Part shown: positions 1 through 55,272 of the stretch, piece by piece | Layout of the letters: each line of letters starts with the position of its first letter | How positions within the stretch are numbered: the first letter of the stretch is position 1 | Source of the DNA: Alphaproteobacteria bacterium | Lineage (GTDB): Bacteria > Pseudomonadota > Alphaproteobacteria > JAJTHO01 > CANGYM01 | Reading direction: 5' to 3' | DNA length: 57,880 nt | Assembly: GCA_947458235.1 (NCBI GenBank) | Contig: CANGYP010000002.1 | Location: forward strand, 1-57,880 | Program-made: the position numbers and the translations under genes | Notes under the pieces: model-generated | Databases searched by the model: none | What the model saw: only the letters and a program-made list of their open reading frames with translations | Told to the model about the DNA's origin: nothing

Positions 1-150
1 ACCTGTTACCTGAAAGGTGGGTTCCCCCATTCGGAAATCAGCGGATCAAAGGGTCTTGGCCCCTCCCCGCTGCTTATCGCAGCCTAGCACGTCCTTCATC
101 GCCTGCAATCGCCAAGGCATCCACCAGATGCTCTTATTTACGCTTGAGGA
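1..150 (-). rRNA. rrl: 23S ribosomal RNA, 5' end (partial, continues beyond the window start)
   Basis: The reverse complement reads AAGAGCATCTGGTGGATGCCTTGGCGATTGCAGGCGATGAAGGACGTGCTAGGCTGCGATAAGC...GATTTCCGAATGGGGGAACCC, the conserved 5' domain of bacterial 23S rRNA. The 5' boundary (~140-150) is estimated from the E. coli layout. Confidence 0.9.
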
Positions 151-6377: not shown

Positions 6378-7703
6378 TTATAAAAGAGCCAGTCGCAAGG
6401 CTTCCACCATATGCCCCAATTTCATGCCAGCGGATCCTTTGATCAAAATCAGGTCTTTGGGCTTCAGGGTTTTTGTGAAAGCTTCACCCAAGTCTGCCAC
6501 ACTTGAGACACACAGGCCCTGTTGGTGTTTGGGCAATTTGGCGTGCAGGGCGGCCATGGCAGGGCCCACGGTGTGCACGGTGGCGATGGACTTACCCACC
6601 AGATCATCCAGCAGGGCCGTATGATACCCCGCGCTGTGTTTGCCCATTTCCAGCATATCCCCCAGCAAGGCAATGCGCCGCCCCGAACACGGCAGGGCCG
6701 CCAGCCGTTGCAACGCTGCCCGCATGGATGCGGGGGAGGCATTATAGGCATCATGAATAATCCGCACCCCCGCAATCTCTAGGATATTCCCCCGCCCCGA
6801 AGGACGCTGAAAGGTGGAAAGGGCGTCATAGGCCGTTTTTACGTCCGCCCCAGCCTCGGCCACCACACTCAAGGCGTACAGGATGCAGGCTTTCAGGGCA
6901 GGATCATCGTTATACCCTGTTAAATCGAAGGATTGCCCCTGCCATTCCCACGTTTTCCGCTCTGCCAATCCTGCGGTGGGGATGGCGGTGATGCGCTGTG
7001 CCCCGCTGTTTTGCGCGGCATCCAAAAGAACATCCGTATAGGCATGATCGTCCCCGTACAGGGCGGTGCCGCCCTTTATAACCCCTTCAAAAATTTCTGC
7101 CTTAGCCAGCGCAATGTCCCGGAGGGAGGAAAAATTGCCGATATGGGACGGGGCCACCGTGGTGATTAAGGCCAAATGGGGGCGGACCAATCGGGTGAGA
7201 TCGCGTAGTTCCCCCGCGTGGTTCATGCCCATTTCCACAATGACAAAAGAGGCTTGCTTGGGGGATCGCATCAACGTCACGGGAACGCCCAAGTGATTAT
7301 TATAATTCCCCGTTGTGGCCGTTGTGGCCCCTTGGGGGGACAGCATGACGCGCAGAAGTTCCTTGGTGGTGGTTTTCCCCACACTACCAGTGATGCCGAT
7401 GACAAAGGCATCCTCTAGCTGGGTGCGGCGATAACGGGCCATCGCTTGCATGGTTGCAAAGGTATCTGACACCCGCAGGACGCGGGGATCGGGGTGAGCT
7501 TCTGCGGACAACACCGCCCCTGCCCCCGCTGCCAGTGCCGCGTCAATATAATGATGACCATCATGGGTTTCCCCCCGCAGGCACACAAACAGATCCCCTG
7601 CGCTGAGGCTTCGTGTATCCAAAGACACGCCCGTGATGGTTAAGGGTTCGCTGCATCGTAAAGAAAGAGCCGCGTTGATTTCTGCTGTGGTCCATAATGT
7701 CAT
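6378..7703 (-). CDS. murF: UDP-N-acetylmuramoyl-tripeptide--D-alanyl-D-alanine ligase
   Basis: 441 aa from the ATG at 7703 (MTLWTTAEINAAL) with GITGSVGKTTTKE P-loop and DAYNASPASM. It has an ATGA overlap with the murE stop. The 76 upstream codons of the ORF are Arg/His-rich junk. Confidence 0.9.
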   Translation of the reverse strand: MTLWTTAEINAALSLRCSEPLTITGVSLDTRSLSAGDLFVCLRGETHDGHHYIDAALAAGAGAVLSAEAHPDPRVLRVSDTFATMQAMARYRRTQLEDAFVIGITGSVGKTTTKELLRVMLSPQGATTATTGNYNNHLGVPVTLMRSPKQASFVIVEMGMNHAGELRDLTRLVRPHLALITTVAPSHIGNFSSLRDIALAKAEIFEGVIKGGTALYGDDHAYTDVLLDAAQNSGAQRITAIPTAGLAERKTWEWQGQSFDLTGYNDDPALKACILYALSVVAEAGADVKTAYDALSTFQRPSGRGNILEIAGVRIIHDAYNASPASMRAALQRLAALPCSGRRIALLGDMLEMGKHSAGYHTALLDDLVGKSIATVHTVGPAMAALHAKLPKHQQGLCVSSVADLGEAFTKTLKPKDLILIKGSAGMKLGHMVEALRLALL

Positions 7704-31390: not shown

Positions 31391-31808
31391 CATCCTGCCG
31401 GTGCAGGGATAGGGTGTGTCCAGCCTCTTGGTGGCGGCGCCAGTGGGTGCGGGATTCTTGGGTGCTGGCCTCATGGCCAGCCTGAAACAGGTAATAATAC
31501 GCATGAAAAACGCTGAGATTTTCAGGAGCGTTCCCGTTCAACATTAAGCATGCAGTGGCCCCATTGCGCGGCACGCACTGATGGGAAACCAAGATGGGCT
31601 GGGCTTCGGCATAGGGATCAGAGCATCGCCCATGGGGCAAAAAAGAGTCCGCCCGATAGGTCCATAACAGTCCGTTGATTTCATCCCGCTGATGGATCGG
31701 GGGGGTGTACACCAGACATTTAATGCCTTCACGGTAAAGGGTTTCCAAAAGACGCGGCAGGGTGTGCAGGGGGGAAAGGGACTGATAAAAAAGGGCTTTG
31801 GCACTCAT
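31365..31808 (-). CDS. holC: DNA polymerase III subunit chi
   Basis: 147 aa; the N-terminal F(Y)Q....... LPRLLETLYREGIKCLVY......EINGLLWTYR..SFLPHG pattern matches HolC. Confidence 0.8.
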   Translation of the reverse strand: MSAKALFYQSLSPLHTLPRLLETLYREGIKCLVYTPPIHQRDEINGLLWTYRADSFLPHGRCSDPYAEAQPILVSHQCVPRNGATACLMLNGNAPENLSVFHAYYYLFQAGHEASTQESRTHWRRHQEAGHTLSLHRQDEKGWTQVA

Positions 31809-34800
31809 AAGGAATCCACGTTTTCCTTTTCAGGATGGAGAACTGACATCACCAAGGCCCGCACTTTCTTCAAATCGATTTTGCCTGTGGGCAGAAGGGG
31901 AATCTCATCCCCCCGCACCATGGCATCGGGTTTGGGCAACCAAAGGTTGGGCAGACGGCTACGGTCCTTCAGAGCCTGATACAGCATGTCTGGCGTTTGG
32001 GTGTCGCTGACAAACAGAACCCCCAAACGCTCGCCTTTGTTGGTATCGGGCAAGCTGACCACCACGGCCTGATGATGGCCCAAAAGGGTGTGGATTTCCT
32101 CTTCAATTTTGCCGTGGGGGACCATTTCCCCGCCCAGTTTGCTGAAACGGCTCAGGCGATCTGTGATCATCAAAAACCCCTCTGGGTCTATTGTTCCGAT
32201 ATCGCCCGTATCGTACCAGCCCCCTTTCATCACCGCCGCCGTTCGTTCGGGAGCGTTATAGTACCCCTGCATTTGCGCGGGACTTTTGATCATAATCCGC
32301 CCTTCCTGCCCTGGAGGGAGGGGTGTATCGTCTTCAAGCCCCACAATGCGCACACTGACTCCGGGGATGGGCTTGCCCACACTGCCCACACGGGTGCCTT
32401 TGTGCCGCCGGCCCCCATGATCAATATCGGGCACATTGACGGACACCACGGGTCCCAGCTCGGTGGTGCCATACCCCTCTAAGATATGGGCATGGGGCAG
32501 GGCGGCAGAAAGTTTTTTCCCCGTTTCCGTCGTTAATTTTTCCCCCCCCACAATCACCAACCGTAAAGTGTCCAGATCATGAGCCTTGGCCACGTTGATG
32601 TAGGTGCGCATAAAAGTCGGTGTGGCCACAATCAGGCCGCTGCGTTCTTTGGCAATGGTCCTGACCACCGTTTTTGCATCCAGCGGGTTGGGATGATACA
32701 CCACGGGCCGCCCCGTTATGGCCGGCAACCACAAACAGGCCGTCAGACCAAAGGAATGAAAAAACGGCAAAATGGCCATCAGGGAGAGTTCTGCTTTATC
32801 CTCGGCCTGCTCCAGCAAACCCCCAACACTTTCGATATTGGCTATGATGTTCTGGTGGGAGAGGGCGATGACTTTGGGCACACCCGTGCTGCCACTGGAA
32901 AACAACAAAACGGCGGTATCATCCTTGCGCCCCCGCACCCACAATCGTTTCAACACAAAGGACGGGCACAGTGCCGCCTGTAACACGGTTATGATTTTTC
33001 GTGTTTGGGGTAGCGTGGCCTGCATATCCTCCAAAAAAATCATGCGATCATCAGGGGCTATACCTGCTTTTTCCACAAAGGCGCGGGATGTGATAAACCG
33101 ATCCGCAGCAAGTGTGGCCAGCGCGGTGTTTAACGCCTCTTCCCCTAGAGAAAAATTCAGATTCACTGCCACCTTGCCCTGCATCACAGCGGCAATGTTC
33201 ACCAAGGCCCCTCCCACACTGGCAGGCAGAAGCAGGGGGATGTTATCCCCCCATCTTTGTTCCGATAACCACAGCCCGATCATGCGGGTGCCCGCCAAGG
33301 CTTGGAATCCTGTGCAGCGTTTGCCCGTTGTGTCGGAAAAAATACAATCCCGCAGATGGTGCCGCATTTGCACAACAAAGCGTGCCCCCAATGTATCATG
33401 GTGGGGATAGCGCAGGGGAATGGCCTCGGTGCCCATTTCGGAAATGATTTGTTCCAGCTGCCAAGCCCGCGTTTCGGGTGGCAGGACCTTGCCCACGGAC
33501 ACGGTGAGGGGATAGGGAAGCTGTTTTGGCCATTTTTTGAAAAAACGACGGCCAGAAAAACTGAAAATGCTGCCCCACAACCGTTCCAGATGAATGGGCA
33601 CAATGTCAACATCCAGACCCTCAACCAGAGCCTCTATCCCCCGTTTAAAGGGATACAGATGCCCTGTGCGGCTCAGGATCCCTTCAGGAAACAGGCACAC
33701 AACGCCCCCTTCGCGCAGGTGTTGCCGCGCAGCCTCTAAGCCCTGTCGTGTTTCCCCGACGGCCCCACTGCCAAAGGGAATCGCCCCCGCAACCGTTAAA
33801 CAAAAACGGGTCAGGGGCTTTTTCCAAAATTTGGCCAAAACCAAAAAATGCACCCGCTTGGGGGCCAACATACTAATGAGCAAACCATCAATAAACGTCA
33901 CATGATTCGCCACAATCACAGTGGGGCGTTTCAGGGGGGGGAAGTGTCCCTGATGCAGACCATCACCCGTGAGTTTGATGCGATAAATCCGTCGCATGAT
34001 CCAATACAGAAAGGATTCCAGCGCATCATGCAGCAAAACAGGATACGCCATGACCCCCAACACCAACGCCACAATCACAATGCCACCACTGGCGGAGATG
34101 ATCTCAGAGGCCGATAAATTAAAGTGGGTGCCCAGAAGCCAGAACAGGCCAGAGGCCAACAAGACCCCCATCATGTCTAGAACATTGTTCAGGGCCATGA
34201 CTTGGCCCCGTTGATCGTCTGGCGATTGTTGTTGCATCAACGTCACCACGGGCACAATGAACAATCCCGCCCCCACACCCGCCAGCCCGATCCACAGGGC
34301 TGTATCCCAATACCCCGACGCAAAGACACCGCAGATACTACAGGATATCCCCATCACAACAGCACCCCAGACGATCAGGGTTTTACGGATGCTTTTGCCC
34401 AAAATGGATCCAGCGACCACGCTGCCTATGCCGATACCCACAGCCAGAAAGGAAAACAGGGACCCCGCTTTGGCCTCGCTGAGGCCAAGTTCCTTCGTGC
34501 CCAACAAAATCAGGGATAGGTAAATCAACCCCCCCATCATCCAATACACAATGCTGCCCGTTAAGGCCCCCATCAGGGTGCGGCGGGCCTTCACGATGGG
34601 CCATGTGCGGACGATTTCCCCGAAGGGGTTGAGGTCAAAGGGCTTGCTGGGATTATGGAGGGTTGTGGCAGGCGACAGCAGACATAACAGCGTTCCAATC
34701 ACCGCCAGAGCGGTTAAAATCAGCCCGATCATCACGGGGTTGTTCTGAAATACCTGCCACATCACTCCCCCTGCCAAGGATCCCGTGATGATGGCCACAT

Positions 34801-35254
34801 AGGTGAGCATGTTCAGGTATCCGTTGGCCTTGGGCCAGTCTTCGGGCTTCATCCATTCTGGCAAAATCCCGTATTTTGACGGACTGAAAAAGGTGGACTG
34901 AACCGCCATAAAAAACAACGTCATCATCAGCAAATCCATGCGATGCGGGGCCCAAACAAAAATTGCCAGCGCTGCCCCCATGGCCACGATTTCAACGGAT
35001 TTGCTGATTTTTAAAATACGGCTTTTGGGGTATCGGTCTGTCACATAACCCGCATAGCCCGAAAACAAAACAAACGGCAAAATGGCCAGCGCACTGATGA
35101 TGGATAAATAGGCTTTTTGGTCGTTGGGATCCGTAAAGATGGCCACTGAAGCTAGCGATAACACCAACTTAAAGGCATTGTCGTTAAAGGCCCCAAAAAA
35201 CTGGGCGGCCAAAAAACACAAAAAACGGGGATGAAAGGGGTGAATGGTACGCAC
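31805..35254 (-). CDS. aas: triple fusion: MFS lysophospholipid transporter (LplT-like) / PlsC-type acyltransferase / acyl-ACP synthetase (Aas)
   Basis: 1149 aa with ~12 TM helices at the N-terminus, the HxxxxD acyltransferase box (NHVTFID), and AMP-binding motifs LLFSSGSTGVPKVIALSH and GYGTTE. GTG start. Confidence 0.85.
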   Translation of the reverse strand: MRTIHPFHPRFLCFLAAQFFGAFNDNAFKLVLSLASVAIFTDPNDQKAYLSIISALAILPFVLFSGYAGYVTDRYPKSRILKISKSVEIVAMGAALAIFVWAPHRMDLLMMTLFFMAVQSTFFSPSKYGILPEWMKPEDWPKANGYLNMLTYVAIITGSLAGGVMWQVFQNNPVMIGLILTALAVIGTLLCLLSPATTLHNPSKPFDLNPFGEIVRTWPIVKARRTLMGALTGSIVYWMMGGLIYLSLILLGTKELGLSEAKAGSLFSFLAVGIGIGSVVAGSILGKSIRKTLIVWGAVVMGISCSICGVFASGYWDTALWIGLAGVGAGLFIVPVVTLMQQQSPDDQRGQVMALNNVLDMMGVLLASGLFWLLGTHFNLSASEIISASGGIVIVALVLGVMAYPVLLHDALESFLYWIMRRIYRIKLTGDGLHQGHFPPLKRPTVIVANHVTFIDGLLISMLAPKRVHFLVLAKFWKKPLTRFCLTVAGAIPFGSGAVGETRQGLEAARQHLREGGVVCLFPEGILSRTGHLYPFKRGIEALVEGLDVDIVPIHLERLWGSIFSFSGRRFFKKWPKQLPYPLTVSVGKVLPPETRAWQLEQIISEMGTEAIPLRYPHHDTLGARFVVQMRHHLRDCIFSDTTGKRCTGFQALAGTRMIGLWLSEQRWGDNIPLLLPASVGGALVNIAAVMQGKVAVNLNFSLGEEALNTALATLAADRFITSRAFVEKAGIAPDDRMIFLEDMQATLPQTRKIITVLQAALCPSFVLKRLWVRGRKDDTAVLLFSSGSTGVPKVIALSHQNIIANIESVGGLLEQAEDKAELSLMAILPFFHSFGLTACLWLPAITGRPVVYHPNPLDAKTVVRTIAKERSGLIVATPTFMRTYINVAKAHDLDTLRLVIVGGEKLTTETGKKLSAALPHAHILEGYGTTELGPVVSVNVPDIDHGGRRHKGTRVGSVGKPIPGVSVRIVGLEDDTPLPPGQEGRIMIKSPAQMQGYYNAPERTAAVMKGGWYDTGDIGTIDPEGFLMITDRLSRFSKLGGEMVPHGKIEEEIHTLLGHHQAVVVSLPDTNKGERLGVLFVSDTQTPDMLYQALKDRSRLPNLWLPKPDAMVRGDEIPLLPTGKIDLKKVRALVMSVLHPEKENVDSL

Positions 35255-38904: not shown

Positions 38905-39396
38905 TTAAAACGACGTTCCCGTGGCCCCGACGCCCCCTGGATTGTAAAGGTTATATTCAATAATGCCAGACCAAAATTTTTCCGCTTTGTGCAGGGTGTC
39001 ACAAGCCTGACGAATTTCGGACTCCTTGGTGTGGGTGGCGGCCAAGCGATCGGCGTGACTGGCAAAAATGTCACGGAATTTCAAAAACAAATCCTTGCCC
39101 TTGGGCGTTAAGCGCACGCGGACAGAACGACGGTCATGGACGGAACGCTGCTGCTCCAGATAGGTATTCTCCACCATTTTCCGGACGTTATAGGACACGT
39201 TGGATCCCAAATAATAGCCACGGTTAATCAATTCCCCGATGGTCAATTCGTCCAAACCGATGTTAAACAAAATCAGTGTTTGGACGTTGTTGATGTCTTG
39301 GATACCGATTTTGTCCAGTTCGGCTTTGACAACTTCTAAAAACTGGCGGTGAACACGCTCTAGAGAGCGCACAAATTCAAGATAGGGTTGCAGCAC
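38905..39396 (-). CDS. MarR-family (winged-helix) transcriptional regulator
   Basis: 163 aa; the ..LTIGELINRGYYLGSNVSYNVRKMVENTYLEQQRSVHDRRSVRVRLTPKGKDL wHTH pattern is typical of MarR-like regulators. GTG start preceded by a perfect GAAGGAG Shine-Dalgarno. Confidence 0.6.
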   Translation of the reverse strand: MLQPYLEFVRSLERVHRQFLEVVKAELDKIGIQDINNVQTLILFNIGLDELTIGELINRGYYLGSNVSYNVRKMVENTYLEQQRSVHDRRSVRVRLTPKGKDLFLKFRDIFASHADRLAATHTKESEIRQACDTLHKAEKFWSGIIEYNLYNPGGVGATGTSF

Positions 39397-39546
39397 GGTG
39401 ATGCTCCTTCAAAAAGTTTCAAGTTCCAGTGTGATCATGTCTTTTGTACACGTGTTATGTTACGATACAAGGGTTTTGTTAAAACCTAGCTAAAAAAAAC
39501 CTGAAAAGTTTTGATATGCCCTTTGGCGCCGTCATGAATGTGATGG

Positions 39547-41928
39547 ATGTTACAGAGGATCTGTCTTTTTTGGGTTATCGTATTGGCCAACAGTATTCCT
39601 ATAAAGATGGATTTTATGGCAGAGTTGGAATCTTTGGCGAGGGGGGTTAAAATTTTTATTCCCCTGACTCGGTCCCCAGAAAAAATAGATTTTTACCGTA
39701 CATTGCTAGAAAATGTTGGTGTTTTGCTTATACCGGCTGAGGCTTTTGTTGATCGAACAGCGACTCCCAAAGAACTTGATCACACGCGTGCCAAGAATAT
39801 TCTTGGCAAAACTGAGGAGATGAAAGCTGTTGCGCAAGGGCTTGCCAATAATGAATCAGGTTTTTTTGCCATGTTGTTTTACCATCTGGGCTATGTGCAG
39901 GATGGGAAATCTTTGGAAGATGTGGAAACAGCATTAAGGGGCTATATTAATGGCGAAAATAATAATGAATTCATTCCTGAGTTTATCAGGGAAGACTACC
40001 GTAGTGCCGCCGCCGATTTGTTTCAGCATCCAGAAGAGATTGTTTTTGCAGTTGATGATTCCAAGTTATCGATTGTGGCTGTTCGGTTCAGCACCATTTA
40101 TGGGATGGCCGAAAAGAAAAAAAAGAGTGTTTCTAAAGAACAAAACGCTGCGCAAGCGTTGGTGAAGCTTATTGATGAAAGCTGCGCTGTTATCGCCAAA
40201 AAAGCTTGGGATAAGCATATTGCTGAAAACTCGGGTGCGAATGAGAACAAAGAAGCATTTATTGCACACAAAAAGCAAAGTCTTTTAGATGCAATCAAAA
40301 AAGATGATAAAGATTTTCCCGGCGCAATGGCGTCGACGTTTTATGAGGTGGCTGGGGGCATTCCTGCTTTTTATACGTTGGTGTTTGAGGCACTGGCAAA
40401 GAATCAAAAAGCTCTTTTGCCTGTCGAAAGTGCCAGCACCATTAATGCCGTTCGGTTAAAACGTACTGACGAAGAATTGATCGTTGAGGAAGTGTTTACT
40501 GTTGATGGTTCACCAGTTTTACGTGGCAAAAGTAAAACCCCAGAATTTCTTAGGCATCCGGATACGGCTAGAGCTTTGTATCCTAATGAACCGGTTACTT
40601 TGCGTACTTGTGTTGTTTTGCCGAATCAAAATACTACGTTAATTGATGCAAATCCAAAACAACTTGGTGGATATGGCGGCCGTAAAGAGGCTTTAGGAAA
40701 AGGAGGCCTTCTTCCATCATCTAATACTTCCTGTATCCCGATTCATCAAGCGCAAATTCCTGTTGCGGTTATTTTTAGCACTGCCGAACAGTTAGAGAGT
40801 GCCAACAATCATCCTGTCGTTCAACAGTTGCAAGAGCAGGGACATCAGGTCACATACTACACGGCAGGGGCGTTGCTGCCTGAACTTGAAAGCCAAGGAA
40901 TTTTTGATCCCAGCCAGTTTGGCCATGACCATGGAGAGGCTTTTTACCAATCCGTCACGGGGAATGGTGTGTTTGTGTTACTGCCAGAAGAGCAGACACA
41001 AGATAATCTTGATATGGATACTTTAGAATTAGCTCTGATTATTAACACTATGATCGGGAAAGCCAATGCGGATACGGGCAAGCGAATCATACGGGTTGGC
41101 GGTGAAACACTTATTTATGAGGCCATAAAAAGAACCCAAGAAATCTGTTTGACCTCAAGTCCATTGTTATCGAGTTGTCGAACAACCCTTGAAGGTTTTG
41201 CTAAAACTTTTGAAGAGGTGATACAAAAATCTTCCATACGGCTTGGAGCAAGTCCGGCTGTTCGATACCCTAATCACAGTAGGCTTTCTAAGCAAGAACC
41301 CCCGTCGCCATGTGAGGAGCAATTTATTATTCTCAGCTTTTGTGGCAGTGCTGTATGTCAAGAACCAGAAACATTGGCGTTTTCTGAAGAGAGAATGCGC
41401 GGTATTCTTGATGCCGCCATCACACAGGCAAACCAAGACCATAAAAAAATCATTGTTGTCCATGGTGCAGGTCATGAGGGCCTGATGGGAATTTTTGATA
41501 AGGTTGCATCTGAATATCAAGAGAAAAACCCTGATTTGATTGCGGTTTTGGGTGCCACAACCCCAGAATTATTGGAAACAGAAGCCGAAGGCAAGCCGCC
41601 CACACGAGGTATTCTTTATAATATCCTTTATTTACAGCGCCTTGGAATCGTTACCGGGGCTCTGAACATGTGCGTTGGGCCTGGCGGTCTTGGGACTGTG
41701 CATGAAGTGTTGGAAGTTTTGCGCCTGGGAAAAAGTATTGAAAAAGAAGGAAGAAACATCCATATTGATCTTAGTCTTTTCAGAGATGAGGATCCCCTAA
41801 AGCCCCTCTTCGCCGCGATATGTGATAATTTTGGGCAGCCTGTTGCAACAAAACAAACATTTGTGCCACAATCTGTAGCACCAGAGGTGTTGCTCACATT
41901 GTTTAATCCCAGTGCAGTGCGCCATTGA
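39547..41928 (+). CDS. large hypothetical protein with C-terminal LOG/SLOG (TIGR00730-like) domain
   Basis: 793 aa. Residues ~592-730 carry the LOG-family motifs in order: SFCGSA, IIVVHGAGHEGLMG, AVLGATTPE, LQR, and CVGPGGLGTVHEVLEVL (PGGxGTxxE). I recognise nothing in the N-terminal ~590 aa. Sampled 60-nt lines give 38-42% GC versus 53-65% in the flanks. The start is uncertain (ATGs at 39547, 39607, 39616). Confidence 0.6.
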   Translation: MLQRICLFWVIVLANSIPIKMDFMAELESLARGVKIFIPLTRSPEKIDFYRTLLENVGVLLIPAEAFVDRTATPKELDHTRAKNILGKTEEMKAVAQGLANNESGFFAMLFYHLGYVQDGKSLEDVETALRGYINGENNNEFIPEFIREDYRSAAADLFQHPEEIVFAVDDSKLSIVAVRFSTIYGMAEKKKKSVSKEQNAAQALVKLIDESCAVIAKKAWDKHIAENSGANENKEAFIAHKKQSLLDAIKKDDKDFPGAMASTFYEVAGGIPAFYTLVFEALAKNQKALLPVESASTINAVRLKRTDEELIVEEVFTVDGSPVLRGKSKTPEFLRHPDTARALYPNEPVTLRTCVVLPNQNTTLIDANPKQLGGYGGRKEALGKGGLLPSSNTSCIPIHQAQIPVAVIFSTAEQLESANNHPVVQQLQEQGHQVTYYTAGALLPELESQGIFDPSQFGHDHGEAFYQSVTGNGVFVLLPEEQTQDNLDMDTLELALIINTMIGKANADTGKRIIRVGGETLIYEAIKRTQEICLTSSPLLSSCRTTLEGFAKTFEEVIQKSSIRLGASPAVRYPNHSRLSKQEPPSPCEEQFIILSFCGSAVCQEPETLAFSEERMRGILDAAITQANQDHKKIIVVHGAGHEGLMGIFDKVASEYQEKNPDLIAVLGATTPELLETEAEGKPPTRGILYNILYLQRLGIVTGALNMCVGPGGLGTVHEVLEVLRLGKSIEKEGRNIHIDLSLFRDEDPLKPLFAAICDNFGQPVATKQTFVPQSVAPEVLLTLFNPSAVRH

Positions 41929-41965
41929 CCGATCATAGCCGATTACCCACCCCCAAGGCCCCCTT

Positions 41966-43126
41966 ATGACGACCCACCCCCACCCTGTTGTGATGATTGT
42001 GGCGGCGGGGGATGGGACCCGTGCGGGATTGCCTGTGCCTAAGCAGTATTATGGGGATCCCTCGCCGCTGGGGCGGGTTTTGTCGGGTTTGTCCGCCCTG
42101 TATCCCACCATCGTGGTGCATGGGGCGCATCATGGGGTATGGATTGACCCCCTGAGGGCGCAATATCCCCATGTTCATTTTTGCGTGGGGGGGGCAACGC
42201 GGGCCGATTCGGTGGTGTGTGGGTTGAGGGTCATGGCGTCTGCGGATTTTCCCGCCGCCGCCCCCCATGTTCTGATTCATGATGCGGCGCGTCCGTCGGC
42301 CCCCCTATCTTTGTTTGCGCGGGTGGCGGCTTTGCTGGGGCAGGGTCATCAGGCCGTGTGTCCCGTTCTGCCCATCAGCGATACGGTCTGCCGCAGTGAT
42401 GGTCATATCTGGCAGGGGGCGCTGGATCGCGCGGGGATCTACCGCGTACAAACGCCGCAGGGGTTTGACCGCGCGGCCCTGCAGGATGCCTTTGAAAAAA
42501 CGGGCGATGCGGCCTTTACGGACGAGGGATCCCGCATGCACGCCGCTGGATACACGGTGCATGTTACAGACGGGGCCCCCGAAAACACGAAAATCACTAT
42601 GCCGGAGGATCTGATGCATCACACCCCCCCCCAACATCACCGCTGGGTCACTGGATCGGGATTTGATGTCCATGCCTTTGATCCCACCAAGCAAACCATC
42701 ACGCTGTGCGGGCTGTGTTTGCCGGCTTCGCAGGGGTTATCGGGGCATTCGGATGCGGATGTGGCGCTGCATGCCTTAACCGATGCTGTGCTGGGCACCA
42801 TGGCGCTGGGGGATATTGGCGAGCATTTCCCCCCCACGGACCCCGCGTGGCAGGGGGCGGATTCCACGCTCTTTTTGGGATTTGCCCTACAACAGTTGGC
42901 CCAGCATCAGGGGATTTTGGACCATATTGACCTCACCATCATCGGGGAAACCCCCAAAATTGCCCCCCATCGGGACCGCTATCGGGGCCGCTTAGCAGAC
43001 CTGTGCGCTCTGCCCCTGAATCGCGTCAGTGTGAAGGCCACCACCACGGAAAAACTGGGATTTTTGGGCCGTAAAGAAGGACTGGCCGCCCAAGCCACCG
43101 TCACCGTGCGCTTTTTGGGAGGGTGA
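41966..43126 (+). CDS. ispDF: bifunctional 2-C-methyl-D-erythritol 4-phosphate cytidylyltransferase / 2,4-cyclodiphosphate synthase
   Basis: 386 aa with an IspD N-terminal half (VAAGDGTRAG..PKQY, IHDAARP) and an IspF C-terminal half (GSGFDVHAF, SDADVALHALTDAVLG, GDIGEHFP). Confidence 0.9.
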   Translation: MTTHPHPVVMIVAAGDGTRAGLPVPKQYYGDPSPLGRVLSGLSALYPTIVVHGAHHGVWIDPLRAQYPHVHFCVGGATRADSVVCGLRVMASADFPAAAPHVLIHDAARPSAPLSLFARVAALLGQGHQAVCPVLPISDTVCRSDGHIWQGALDRAGIYRVQTPQGFDRAALQDAFEKTGDAAFTDEGSRMHAAGYTVHVTDGAPENTKITMPEDLMHHTPPQHHRWVTGSGFDVHAFDPTKQTITLCGLCLPASQGLSGHSDADVALHALTDAVLGTMALGDIGEHFPPTDPAWQGADSTLFLGFALQQLAQHQGILDHIDLTIIGETPKIAPHRDRYRGRLADLCALPLNRVSVKATTTEKLGFLGRKEGLAAQATVTVRFLGG

Positions 43127-43130
43127 GGGT

Positions 43131-43829
43131 ATGGTTGTGTTGCCTGCCCCCATCCCAGAGGCCGCCATTGCGGTGGAGGGTTTGTCTTTTTCCTACTCCC
43201 CCCTAGAGCCGCCGGTTTTAAAAGGGGTGTCCTTAACCGTCAATGCGGGGGATATTGTCATTATGACAGGGCCGTCAGGGTCGGGAAAATCCACATTTTT
43301 GACCATAGTGGGAGCCCTGCGTCACGCCACACAGGGGCGGGTGAGTGTTTTTGGCAAAAACCTGATTGGCGCATCACAGGATACCTTACTGGCCGTGCGG
43401 CGACAAACGGGGTATATTTTCCAAGCGCATAATTTGCTGGAATCCCTAACCGCCCTGCAAAACGTCAGCATGACGTTGGAGCTGGACGGGGATTTGCGGG
43501 AAACCGATCGCCGTGACTTGGCGGCGGATATGCTGGGGCGGGTGGGCCTGTCGGGGCATGAACACAAAAAACCGGGGGCGTTGTCGGGGGGACAACGGCA
43601 AAGGGTCTCCATCGCCCGCGCCCTCGTCGGCAAGCCCAAAATGGTTTTGGCGGATGAACCCACGGCGTCCCTAGACAAGGCCAGTGGTCAGGCGTGCGTA
43701 GAAATCCTGAAGGCTTTGGCGCTGGAAAATGGCACCACCATTTTTTTGGTGTCCCACGATTACCGCATTTTAAATCAAGCCCACCGTATTGTGGAACTGG
43801 AGGACGGCATCCTTCGCAATGCCCCTTAA
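43131..43829 (+). CDS. ABC transporter ATP-binding protein, DevA-like
   Basis: GPSGSGKSTFLTIVGALR Walker A, GYIFQAHNLLESLTALQNV, LSGGQRQRVSIARAL and VLADEPTASLD. This closely follows the DevA/MacB-type ATPase pattern. Confidence 0.8.
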   Translation: MVVLPAPIPEAAIAVEGLSFSYSPLEPPVLKGVSLTVNAGDIVIMTGPSGSGKSTFLTIVGALRHATQGRVSVFGKNLIGASQDTLLAVRRQTGYIFQAHNLLESLTALQNVSMTLELDGDLRETDRRDLAADMLGRVGLSGHEHKKPGALSGGQRQRVSIARALVGKPKMVLADEPTASLDKASGQACVEILKALALENGTTIFLVSHDYRILNQAHRIVELEDGILRNAP

Positions 43830-54092: not shown

Positions 54093-55272
54093 CTATTTGG
54101 AATGATCCTCGGAATGGACAAGTCTTTGTATTTGTATTTGTTGTGACATTACCGAGGGGGTGATCGATGTGACTTGACCACTTATGTCCAAAAACGCAGG
54201 GACGCCATTAAAATCACCCTTCTGCTCCACAGGGCTCACCGTTCCTACTGGGTATGGGGTTGCTTGGGGTGTATATCCCCCTCGCCCCAATTGGACGGTG
54301 ACAGAAACGCCGCCGTTCTGGGGGACAAAAAACACTCCACCCGTTGTAGAATTATCTGTGCCGCTTTTGGCAGCGCCTTGGGCGTTGCCTTGGGCGTTCC
54401 GAAGGCTGGGGCTTGTCACGCCGTGATCTGTTAGCCATCCAACGAATGCCGTGCTGGTATTGGCAACTTGCCAAAGGGCTTTTGTATACTCAGCGACATC
54501 AACATGTCCCTGGCGAGACGGTAAACGTTTTCCCGTTTGGGCATTAAGACACAACTCAGATATGCGTGCGACGGGGTAAGGGCCCGATCCCCCTTCCACA
54601 CCATCGGGATGTCCTGAACCGTTAAATATCAAAACTTTTGATAGGTTTATGGTGGTATTCCTTAAAAGAAATCCTTGCAAGTTATGCCCAGCTTGGGCTG
54701 CAATATTTTCAAAGGACTTGGGTAAGGGTTTGTTAGGTCGATAGGCAGCAAGAATCTCTGCGAGCCCATTATCAGACGTTTCCCAAGTATGTTTTATCAA
54801 GTCACCCCATGTCGCGGCTTTGTTATCATTAAAAAATGATGAACCTCGGGCTTTGGCGGCAGCAATAACCTCTGGGGGAACGGGGTTATCAAGATTTTCC
54901 GTTTTTCCCCCTAAAACATCTTGGAAAACGCGAAACATTGTCAGGGCTTTTACAGTCGAGGCCGCCGTGTGATTGGATGGGATATTCCCTGCGGGCACGG
55001 ACGCAGATATTGCCCCGTTTTCGTTGATGCGTACCGTAACGGGTTGGGTGCTTATTGGGGGGGGGGGGGGGGGTGATGGTTGCAGCCGAGCAATACGGGG
55101 TGTTGCTAATCCGAGCGTTGATCTCCTGAGCATCTTTTATGACTGCGATCAGGGTTGAGATGGTGGGGTCAGTTGAAGACAGTATAGGGTTGGCTAAAGG
55201 AAGGATATTCCCTGTGGTCATAAGTTGCGCACCCCAAAACAATGAGGCGGCGGAGGATACGATAAGACTCAT
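54093..55272 (-). pseudogene. class A beta-lactamase-like serine hydrolase, reading frame broken at a poly-C(17) tract (phase-OFF state, pseudogene or assembly error)
   Basis: The downstream frame (54093-55133) carries SxxK (AASTVKAL), SDN (TSDNGLAEIL), an E-x3-N omega-loop-like motif (SELCLN) and KSG (AAKSGTD). The upstream frame (55272 down to the tract) supplies a hydrophobic N-terminus (MSLIVSSAASLFWGAQLM) and starts 17 nt after the protease stop. The two frames meet in the C17 tract, and both read poly-Pro across it. Confidence 0.6.
55057..55073. repeat. homopolymeric tract G17 (C17 on the coding strand)
   Basis: Counted directly: 17 consecutive G at 55057-55073. It encodes PPPPP(P) in both open frames. 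Confidence 0.95.

Follow-up and report, generated by a model that had tools for sequence, protein, structure and literature searches.

Gene X lies on the forward strand of a 57,880-nucleotide stretch of DNA (positions 1 to 57,880 of contig CANGYP010000002.1, assembly GCA_947458235.1) from a genome labelled Alphaproteobacteria bacterium; this whole stretch is referred to here as the window. As read from sequence profiles and structural models, the product of X is a protein of three modules: an ITPase/Ham1/RdgB-like domain (residues 34-394), an alpha/beta middle region (395-585) and a LOG-type domain (586-793). On balance, X is probably an accessory enzyme that would dismantle nucleotides in two steps, joining a Ham1-like and a subsequent LOG-like activity in one polypeptide that is carried as exchangeable cargo. 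In such an enzyme, a nucleoside triphosphate (NTP) would be converted to the monophosphate (NMP) and pyrophosphate (PPi) on the Ham1-like module, and the NMP would then be split into a free base and ribose 5-phosphate on the LOG module. The nucleotide so dismantled would probably be a purine that is non-canonical or modified. Folds, motifs, cassette structure, composition and divergence statistics are results of this analysis, whereas the catalysis, substrate, coupling and role proposed for X are inferred. The fusion of these two nucleotide-breakdown domains is previously undescribed: no paper on a Ham1-LOG fusion was found in the literature, and databases name the family only as a ‘predicted Rossmann-fold nucleotide-binding protein’.

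The C-terminal module carries the LOG motifs at the positions and in the order given by an initial annotation of this DNA, namely FCGSA (598-602), IIVVHGAGHEGLMG (635-648), VLGATTP (667-673), R698 and PGGLGTVHE (712-720). Within the last of these, the P, G, G, G, T and E residues are invariant in all eight family sequences, including the most distant member, P0010 (34% identity). An hhalign comparison of the family's C-terminal alignment with 120 real LOG proteins is significant (P=1.6e-5, score 40.5, 115 columns), exceeding column shuffles (30 + 100, maximum 24.2) and a reversed query (17.4), and it brings the FCGS strand, the GLMG loop, the Arg and the PGGxGTxxE motif into register. In this alignment R698 pairs with the Arg of the MHERK motif and E720 with the motif Glu, both of which are invariant in the family. 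A catalytic Arg and Glu are, with PGGxGTxxE, the defining features of LOG enzymes (PMC6864091). When the C-terminal profile is searched against all PDB sequences, the top 12 matches are LOG or PpnN chains (best E=0.0018), as are 18 of the 22 matches listed. The same search returned no DprA-, YpsA- or ThsA-type SLOG chains, which assigns the domain to LOG proper as a very divergent member. Recognition of the C-terminal domain as LOG-type by remote homology thus holds, and the domain would be expected to possess N-glycosidase activity on nucleoside 5'-monophosphates.

The initial annotation took this domain to be the only recognisable module and the first ~590 residues to match nothing. Residues 34-394, however, are predicted to adopt an ITPase/Ham1-like fold. 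AlphaFold2 (AF2) models this segment with a predicted local distance difference test (pLDDT) score of 80.5 and a predicted template modelling (pTM) score of 0.71 from a family-only alignment of seven sequences that contains no Ham1 sequences. In a Foldseek search of 350,542 PDB chains, the top 13 matches to this model are all ITPase/Ham1/RdgB proteins (probability 0.44-0.99), among them RdgB, Coxiella and S. aureus Ham1, PH1917, Plasmodium Ham1 and human ITPA, and the best-probability matches in a viral structure library are also of Ham1 type. An hhalign comparison of the N-terminus with 120 real PF01725 proteins gives a score of 31.7 (P=6e-4 to 1e-3, at a probability of only 21-28%), a value that none of 100 shuffles (maximum 23.9-25.5) and no control domain pair (10-19) reaches. 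The alignment begins at residue 1 of both domains. Both the 120-sequence profile and the model were needed to see this relationship, as hhalign against single approximate ITPA, RdgB and consensus sequences gave no signal.

By residue mapping, part of the Ham1 active site is retained. Of 12 nearly invariant polar or motif columns of Ham1 in the half that aligns with confidence (hydrophobic core positions excluded), eight are identical and invariant in the family, and three are changed. The invariant residues retained from the Ham1 phosphate/metal site are T41, K46, E76, N84, K88, D170, D171 and S172; L174 also fits the consensus, but P0010 has Ile at this position, so that it is not invariant. 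Two helical insertions (residues ~102-159 and ~187-253) interrupt the fold and coincide with length differences between the window family and P0010. The Ham1-like module may be read as one that has kept its triphosphate/metal site and acquired a new base specificity, with pyrophosphatase-like activity predicted from sequence. A likeness of the N-terminus to amino-acid kinases and isopentenyl phosphate kinase (E 0.005-0.05) was rejected as an identity because it reflects generic similarity of the first beta-alpha-beta unit. A full-length AF2 model was poor (pLDDT 42.6), and its Foldseek matches, only generic flavodoxin- and Rossmann-like ones, were discarded.

Several results weigh against a two-domain enzyme. 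The full protein has no Pfam match at E<=0.1 and scores 16.7 bits with TIGR00730 (cut-off 96.35), while the isolated C-terminal domain reaches 15.6 bits with PF03641 (cut-off 27) and 19.6 bits with TIGR00730 (cut-off 96.35). Measured by curated cut-offs, it thus does not belong to the LOG family. The initial claim of a LOG domain accordingly survives in its motifs, their order and the significant profile-level tests, and as remote homology only, with the Pfam and TIGRFAM cut-offs missed; the weak PF03641 and TIGR00730 matches have the same position in three proteins (the window protein, P0007 and P0010). At the N-terminus, a Pfam/NCBIfam search with residues 34-338 for PF01725 membership gave no match at E<=10, and a PDB sequence search with an N-terminal profile trimmed of the insertions found no ITPase, only noise (BolA, YoeB). 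The target-normalised TM-scores of the 34-394 model to ITPases are modest (0.32-0.56), which is attributed to the helical insertions. Three Ham1 invariants are altered, Asn being replaced by S43, Glu by F49 and Gly by K173. The base-recognition motifs SAR, FGYDP and SHR are largely lost, with only P258, G259, R379 and A382 persisting in a low-confidence part of the alignment. Given the altered invariants and the loss of FGYDP and SHR, module 1 could have a binding instead of an enzymatic role. Residues 395-585, finally, have no match in Pfam, NCBIfam or PDB sequences, nor by hhalign to LOG, Ham1 or the C-terminal domain.

In the poor full-length AF2 model this middle region displays alternating beta-alpha secondary structure. 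The possibility that it is an internal duplication of the LOG domain was dismissed, since its hhalign score to the C-terminal domain (21.7) falls inside the shuffle range. Across residues ~390-590 (nucleotides ~40714-41316), synonymous divergence (dS) is 0.008-0.032 and the ratio of nonsynonymous to synonymous divergence (dN/dS) 1.2-3.8 in all six pairs of four alleles. Synonymous and nonsynonymous codon differences number 2:27 in this segment and 60:97 elsewhere (Fisher p=5e-4). An overlapping open reading frame (ORF) was considered as the cause of the low dS and rejected, as no alternative frame is open across the segment. The segment may have been exchanged recently and then placed under positive selection, or it may be constrained at the nucleotide level. 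In both enzymatic domains of X, dN/dS is below 1. For the gene as a whole it is 0.51-0.88, compared with 0.11-0.31 in neighbouring genes.

X is a single-gene low-GC island of foreign-looking composition. The 793-codon ORF that the initial annotation had reported at 39547-41928 exists, its hand counts of GC in 60-nucleotide lines (38%, 42%, 53% and 65%) are reproduced exactly, and its view of the ORF as AT-richer than its surroundings is borne out. GC content is 0.435 in the ORF and 0.538 in the remainder of the window, whose minimum-GC stretch of 2382 bp begins at 39201 and overlaps the ORF. GC at third codon positions (GC3) is 0.37, against 0.46-0.69 in the 42 other genes of the window, while GC at first and second positions (GC1 0.55, GC2 0.38) is ordinary, so that the compositional anomaly is one of synonymous codon usage. 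Because the adjacent MarR-family gene has a GC3 of 0.59, the low GC3 is limited to a single gene.

The position of X is shared by unrelated genes. Blastn between the window and loci L014 and L015 finds homology only at 39537-39648 (94-96% identity) and from 41946 onward (~92%); in the exact slot of X these loci carry unrelated genes of 822 and 786 amino acids. Further IspDF-bearing contigs were sampled to survey the contents of the slot, which holds X in the window, L001, L002 and L007, a cargo termed Y1 in L014 and L017, and a cargo termed Y2 in L015, L016 and L018/19. Y1 and Y2 are only 22-27% identical to each other, whereas the IspDF proteins of their hosts are 97-98% identical. Like X, the Y cargos have low GC3 (0.36-0.46 for X, Y1 and Y2 versus 0.64-0.77) and raised dN/dS (0.58-0.83 for Y). 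They have no Pfam match, and their C-terminal segments are hydrophobic and rich in Gly and Ala. X is thus an exchangeable accessory gene. It shares a recombination hot spot directly upstream of ispDF, in closely related, uncultured bacteria from lakes, with at least two other low-GC cargos, which replace one another and X.

Vertical inheritance of X together with ispDF might be suggested by similar protein identities (83% versus 86%), but this reading was given up in view of a dS two- to four-fold below that of the flanks and a distribution of cargos that is incongruent with IspDF relatedness. Between the window and L002, X has a dS of 0.17, and the flanking ispDF and ABC genes have values of 0.37 and 0.78. 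The X alleles are therefore younger than the flanking genes, which fits exchange between lineages. By IspDF, the genome of the window groups with carriers of Y (94-95%) and not with the other carriers of X (86%). According to the initial annotation, syntenic orthologues of the same composition across free-living relatives would mark X as an ordinary lineage core gene. Syntenic orthologues of like composition do exist, but since the slot is variable, X is not a core gene of the lineage.

Hallmarks of mobile elements are lacking in the window: it contains no tRNA gene, flanking repeats are only short and at chance level, and X has no relatives on plasmids or phages. The locus represents a clean natural cassette replacement, with unrelated orphans behind one leader and flanks that are 94-98% identical. 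Such a slot is a defined site at which new accessory functions of uncultured Alphaproteobacteria from freshwater might be sought, be it in defence, in antagonism or in interaction with a host. Its neighbourhood looks like an accessory or defence-type region. In relatives, a second low-GC orphan (478 amino acids, GC ~0.35; L002 3939-5375) occurs a few kb from the slot, and variable ParE, RelE, Fic, zeta-toxin and Band_7 genes are found nearby (L002 1-1200; L015 3671-6025; L018 5666-6451).

This setting invites an alternative that we regard as unlikely, in which X would be a single-protein nucleotide-sensing conflict system directed against phages or competitors. Its Ham1-like domain would recognise a modified NTP as a signal without turning it over, in the way that KomB of the Kongming system binds dITP; the LOG/SLOG domain would serve as a nucleotide-depleting effector, or as a second sensor as in ThsA, and the fast-evolving middle domain would recognise the target. 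Mutually exclusive orphan cargos in a hot-spot slot do resemble a defence island, and toxin-antitoxin modules, Fic and zeta-toxin genes lie nearby in relatives. The raised dN/dS, above 1 for the middle domain in all pairs, and the remodelled base-recognition half of the Ham1 fold would also suit such a system. A HAM1-like sensor subunit has a precedent in KomBC (PMC13454610), which appears as a weak fold match at Foldseek rank 31. Conversely, PADLOC-DB 2.0 matches neither the window protein, nor P0010, nor the alternative cargos. Neighbouring genes include no SIR2, TIR or deaminase gene, a SIR2 or deaminase partner is missing in three different contexts, and there are no phage or plasmid relatives. 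Moreover, the metal/phosphate catalytic residues of both domains are kept across 34% identity, which favours catalysis.

A more general form of this idea, which seems distinctly unlikely, treats the slot as a hot spot that generates diversity among conflict modules of one gene each, and the Ham1-X-LOG protein as a new, self-contained system of nucleotide-based immunity or antagonism. The Ham1-like domain would then capture a base-modified NTP made during infection or attack, the LOG domain would destroy it or a wider pool of nucleotides, and an arms race would be fought by the middle domain, whose dN/dS exceeds 1.

The 5' end of the gene bears on the further suggestion, made in the initial annotation, that X encodes a secreted effector. 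The 793-residue protein is the product of the maximal ORF. Its conserved part starts at residue 34/35, and residues 1-33 are encoded by a leader that all cargo types share. The leader in the window is 94-96% identical to those of L014 and L015, which precede unrelated cargo, and homology of the window to L001, L002 and L007 begins at 39536/7. As the window leader is of the Y type, the locus is chimeric. In other loci with X, TAA TAA stands directly before the ATG of MKIFIPL, and four of five distinct X alleles begin with MKIFIPL and have in-frame stops upstream. In the window, a 14-bp deletion removes both the TAA TAA stops and this ATG, so that the ORF extends upstream and the leader is fused in frame to X.

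In other carriers of X, the leader DNA that corresponds to residues 1-33 is non-coding or read in another frame. Since the DNA of the leader is conserved while its frame drifts between subtypes, a function at the nucleic-acid level, such as a promoter or 5' untranslated region, is argued for rather than a signal peptide; an Rfam search with the leader gave no match. Of the candidate starts, 39616 is the only one that is ATG in all six aligned loci. In L002-type loci (L002 ~7260-7311, corresponding to window 39616-39660), a 15-codon upstream ORF runs from this invariant ATG to a stop that overlaps the start of X (ATGA), which suggests translational coupling. The JGI annotation places a 55-amino-acid ORF in another frame of the L002-type leader. 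The simple alternative that residues 1-33 are untranslated is made uncertain by their in-frame sharing with alternative cargos.

That X is a secreted effector of a host-associated bacterium, manipulating nucleotide or cytokinin-type signals of its host, is improbable on this evidence. The longest ORF does begin with a hydrophobic, signal-like stretch (MLQRICLFWVIVLANSIPIK), which is also present on the cargos of L014, L015 and L017. The gene is low in GC, lineage-restricted and fast-evolving, and its distant homologue P0010 comes from a metagenome-assembled genome (MAG) labelled Holosporales. On the other hand, the signal-like N-terminus is not conserved in the family: four of the five X alleles do without it, in-frame stops preceding their MKIFIPL start, and a leader whose frame shifts while its DNA is conserved is not selected as a peptide. 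The ‘host-associated hallmarks’ mentioned in the initial annotation are likewise not found, as the genes of the window are ordinary core genes and the sole hint of a host association is the Holosporales label of that one MAG.

The family of X is small. Seven clusters (81-100% identity) emerged when 5.8 billion proteins were searched with a word index, and P0010 was the sole addition from an exhaustive profile search over 1.84 billion representatives. The family comprises eight clusters at 90% identity among these representatives, which collapse to two at 50%. Its carriers are freshwater metagenomes or MAGs labelled ‘Alphaproteobacteria bacterium’, apart from the Holosporales MAG. In the latter, the P0010 gene lies between gdh and lepA as a single-gene island of low GC3 (0.42 versus 0.65 and 0.67); the L002 copy of X is likewise low in GC3. 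In L002-L008, X is directly upstream of ispDF and the ABC ATPase gene, as it is in the window, while in L001 the gene downstream is ilvD. The description of X as ‘regulator-adjacent’ applies to the window alone, since in L002-L008 the upstream neighbour is a ygfZ/GcvT-like gene. The MarR-family neighbour in the window is native in composition and has LdtR (NF047395) as its top model, at 159.5 bits and under the 250-bit cut-off.

The position of X upstream of ispDF raises the prospect, in our view very improbable, that X is a housekeeping or cytokinin gene of an ispDF operon, in which the methylerythritol phosphate (MEP) pathway would supply dimethylallyl diphosphate (DMAPP) for isopentenyl-adenine nucleotides and the LOG domain would activate them. 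The two are on the same strand in the window and L002-L008, with a 37-bp gap that contains no terminator-like site (a scan for promoters and terminators gave nothing above shuffles), and the N-terminus has the weak likeness to these kinases noted above (isopentenyl phosphate and amino-acid types, E 0.005-0.05). Yet unrelated orphans occupy the same position where IspDF is 94-98% identical, the downstream gene is ilvD in L001, and the Holosporales MAG has its copy between gdh and lepA. The GC3 and dS of X are decoupled from those of ispDF, and the kinase likeness is confined to the first beta-alpha-beta unit, whereas GLMG and PGGxGTxxE are LOG-specific. A decaying or non-functional foreign ORF, as might be suspected from the raised dN/dS (0.51-0.88) and the loss of the gene's own start codon in the window, is hardly credible given a frame of ~760 codons that is open in every allele and in the 34%-identical homologue, conservation concentrated on catalytic motifs, and dN/dS below 1 in both enzymatic domains.

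The features of the locus are collected in Table 1. Elsewhere in the window, a 346-amino-acid ORF (54093-55133, minus strand) has no Pfam match and the second-lowest GC3 (0.46), and may also be foreign or an orphan. A 1149-amino-acid fusion of a major facilitator superfamily (MFS) transporter, an acyltransferase and an AMP-binding domain (31805-35254, minus strand) resembles Aas-type lysophospholipid transporter/acyltransferases. The 5' end of a 23S rRNA gene (1-147, minus strand) is truncated by the edge of the window.

Table 1. Features of the X locus; coordinates refer to the window unless another locus is named.
Feature	Coordinates	Strand	Remarks
MarR/LdtR-like regulator	38905..39396	-	divergently transcribed; beside X in this window only; GC3 0.59
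Slot upstream of ispDF	window 39537-41945; L014 940-3504; L015 7506-9978; also L016, L017, L018		
Leader common to all cargo types	39537..39648	+	~110 bp; candidate starts 39547, 39607, 39616
Longest ORF of gene X	39547..41928	+	793 amino acids; conserved protein from residue 34/35 to end
Predicted ITPase/Ham1/RdgB-like domain	39646..40728	+	residues 34-394; from AF2, Foldseek, hhalign, residue mapping
Exchangeable cargo segment	39649..41945	+	unrelated low-GC3 genes Y1/Y2 here in L014-L018; blastn breakpoints
Helical insertion 1 in predicted Ham1-like fold	39850..40023	+	residues ~102-159; 38 amino acids longer in P0010
Helical insertion 2 in predicted Ham1-like fold	40105..40305	+	residues ~187-253
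Middle alpha/beta domain and linker	40729..41301	+	residues 395-585
Divergent LOG-type domain	41302..41928	+	residues 586-793; FCGSA, GAGHEGLMG loop 640-648, putative catalytic R698, PGGLGTVHE with E720
ispDF + ABC ATPase, conserved right flank of slot	41966..43829	+	37-bp gap from cargo

Each of the predicted activities of X has known relatives. Members of the LOG family, which are cytokinin riboside 5'-monophosphate phosphoribohydrolases (TIGR00730/PF03641; for example At5g11950, PDB 1ydh), align in register with the C-terminal ~150 residues of X. They are stand-alone proteins of ~200 amino acids that form dimers or hexamers, whereas the LOG-type domain of X ends a multidomain protein of ~760 amino acids and its glycine-rich loop reads GAGHEGLMG, unlike that of the family. 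With the ITPase/Ham1/RdgB family of pyrophosphatases for non-canonical purine NTPs (PF01725; E. coli RdgB 1k7k, PH1917 2dvo, human ITPA 2j4e), X shares the predicted fold and, in the same order from domain residue 1, the T..x..K, E, N..K and DDSxL residues. It differs from that family by two helical insertions (~58 and ~67 amino acids), the changes at S43, F49 and K173, the loss of FGYDP and SHR and the absence of a Pfam match.

Larger proteins and systems also offer parallels. PpnN (YgdH), a (p)ppGpp-regulated nucleotide 5'-monophosphate nucleosidase, is likewise a large multidomain protein with a LOG domain. In PpnN, however, the LOG domain is central, as the initial annotation correctly pointed out in setting the architecture of X apart, the flanking domains are unrelated, and there is no Ham1-like module, so that similarity to X is confined to the LOG core (~660-760). 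The Kongming system, whose KomBC effector contains the HAM1-like dITP-binding subunit KomB, provides a case of a Ham1-like fold outside house-cleaning and in a variable accessory context. Kongming requires the deaminase KomA and the SIR2 protein KomC, neither of which is encoded in any of the loci analysed, and PADLOC finds no match.

A further parallel to the proposed two-step enzyme is the yeast pair of Ham1p and Log1p, which has the same two activities as those predicted for X, in the same order (Carlsson et al., 2018; PMC5940212). Yeast genetics led to the proposal that purine and pyrimidine nucleotides of non-canonical type are broken down by Ham1p and then by Log1p, and nucleotide detoxification rather than cytokinin activation was put forward as the original role of LOG proteins (PMC5940212). 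Ham1p and Log1p are separate, conserved housekeeping proteins, whereas in X the two domains are fused, accompanied by an extra domain, rare, exchangeable and fast-evolving. If the reading of X as a two-step enzyme is correct, a natural Ham1-LOG fusion would constitute ‘Rosetta-stone’ evidence for an idea that has so far come from yeast genetics, namely that LOG proteins function downstream of ITPases in destroying non-canonical nucleotides, with cytokinin activation as a later specialisation, and it would offer a single protein in which the hand-over of substrate between both steps could be assayed.

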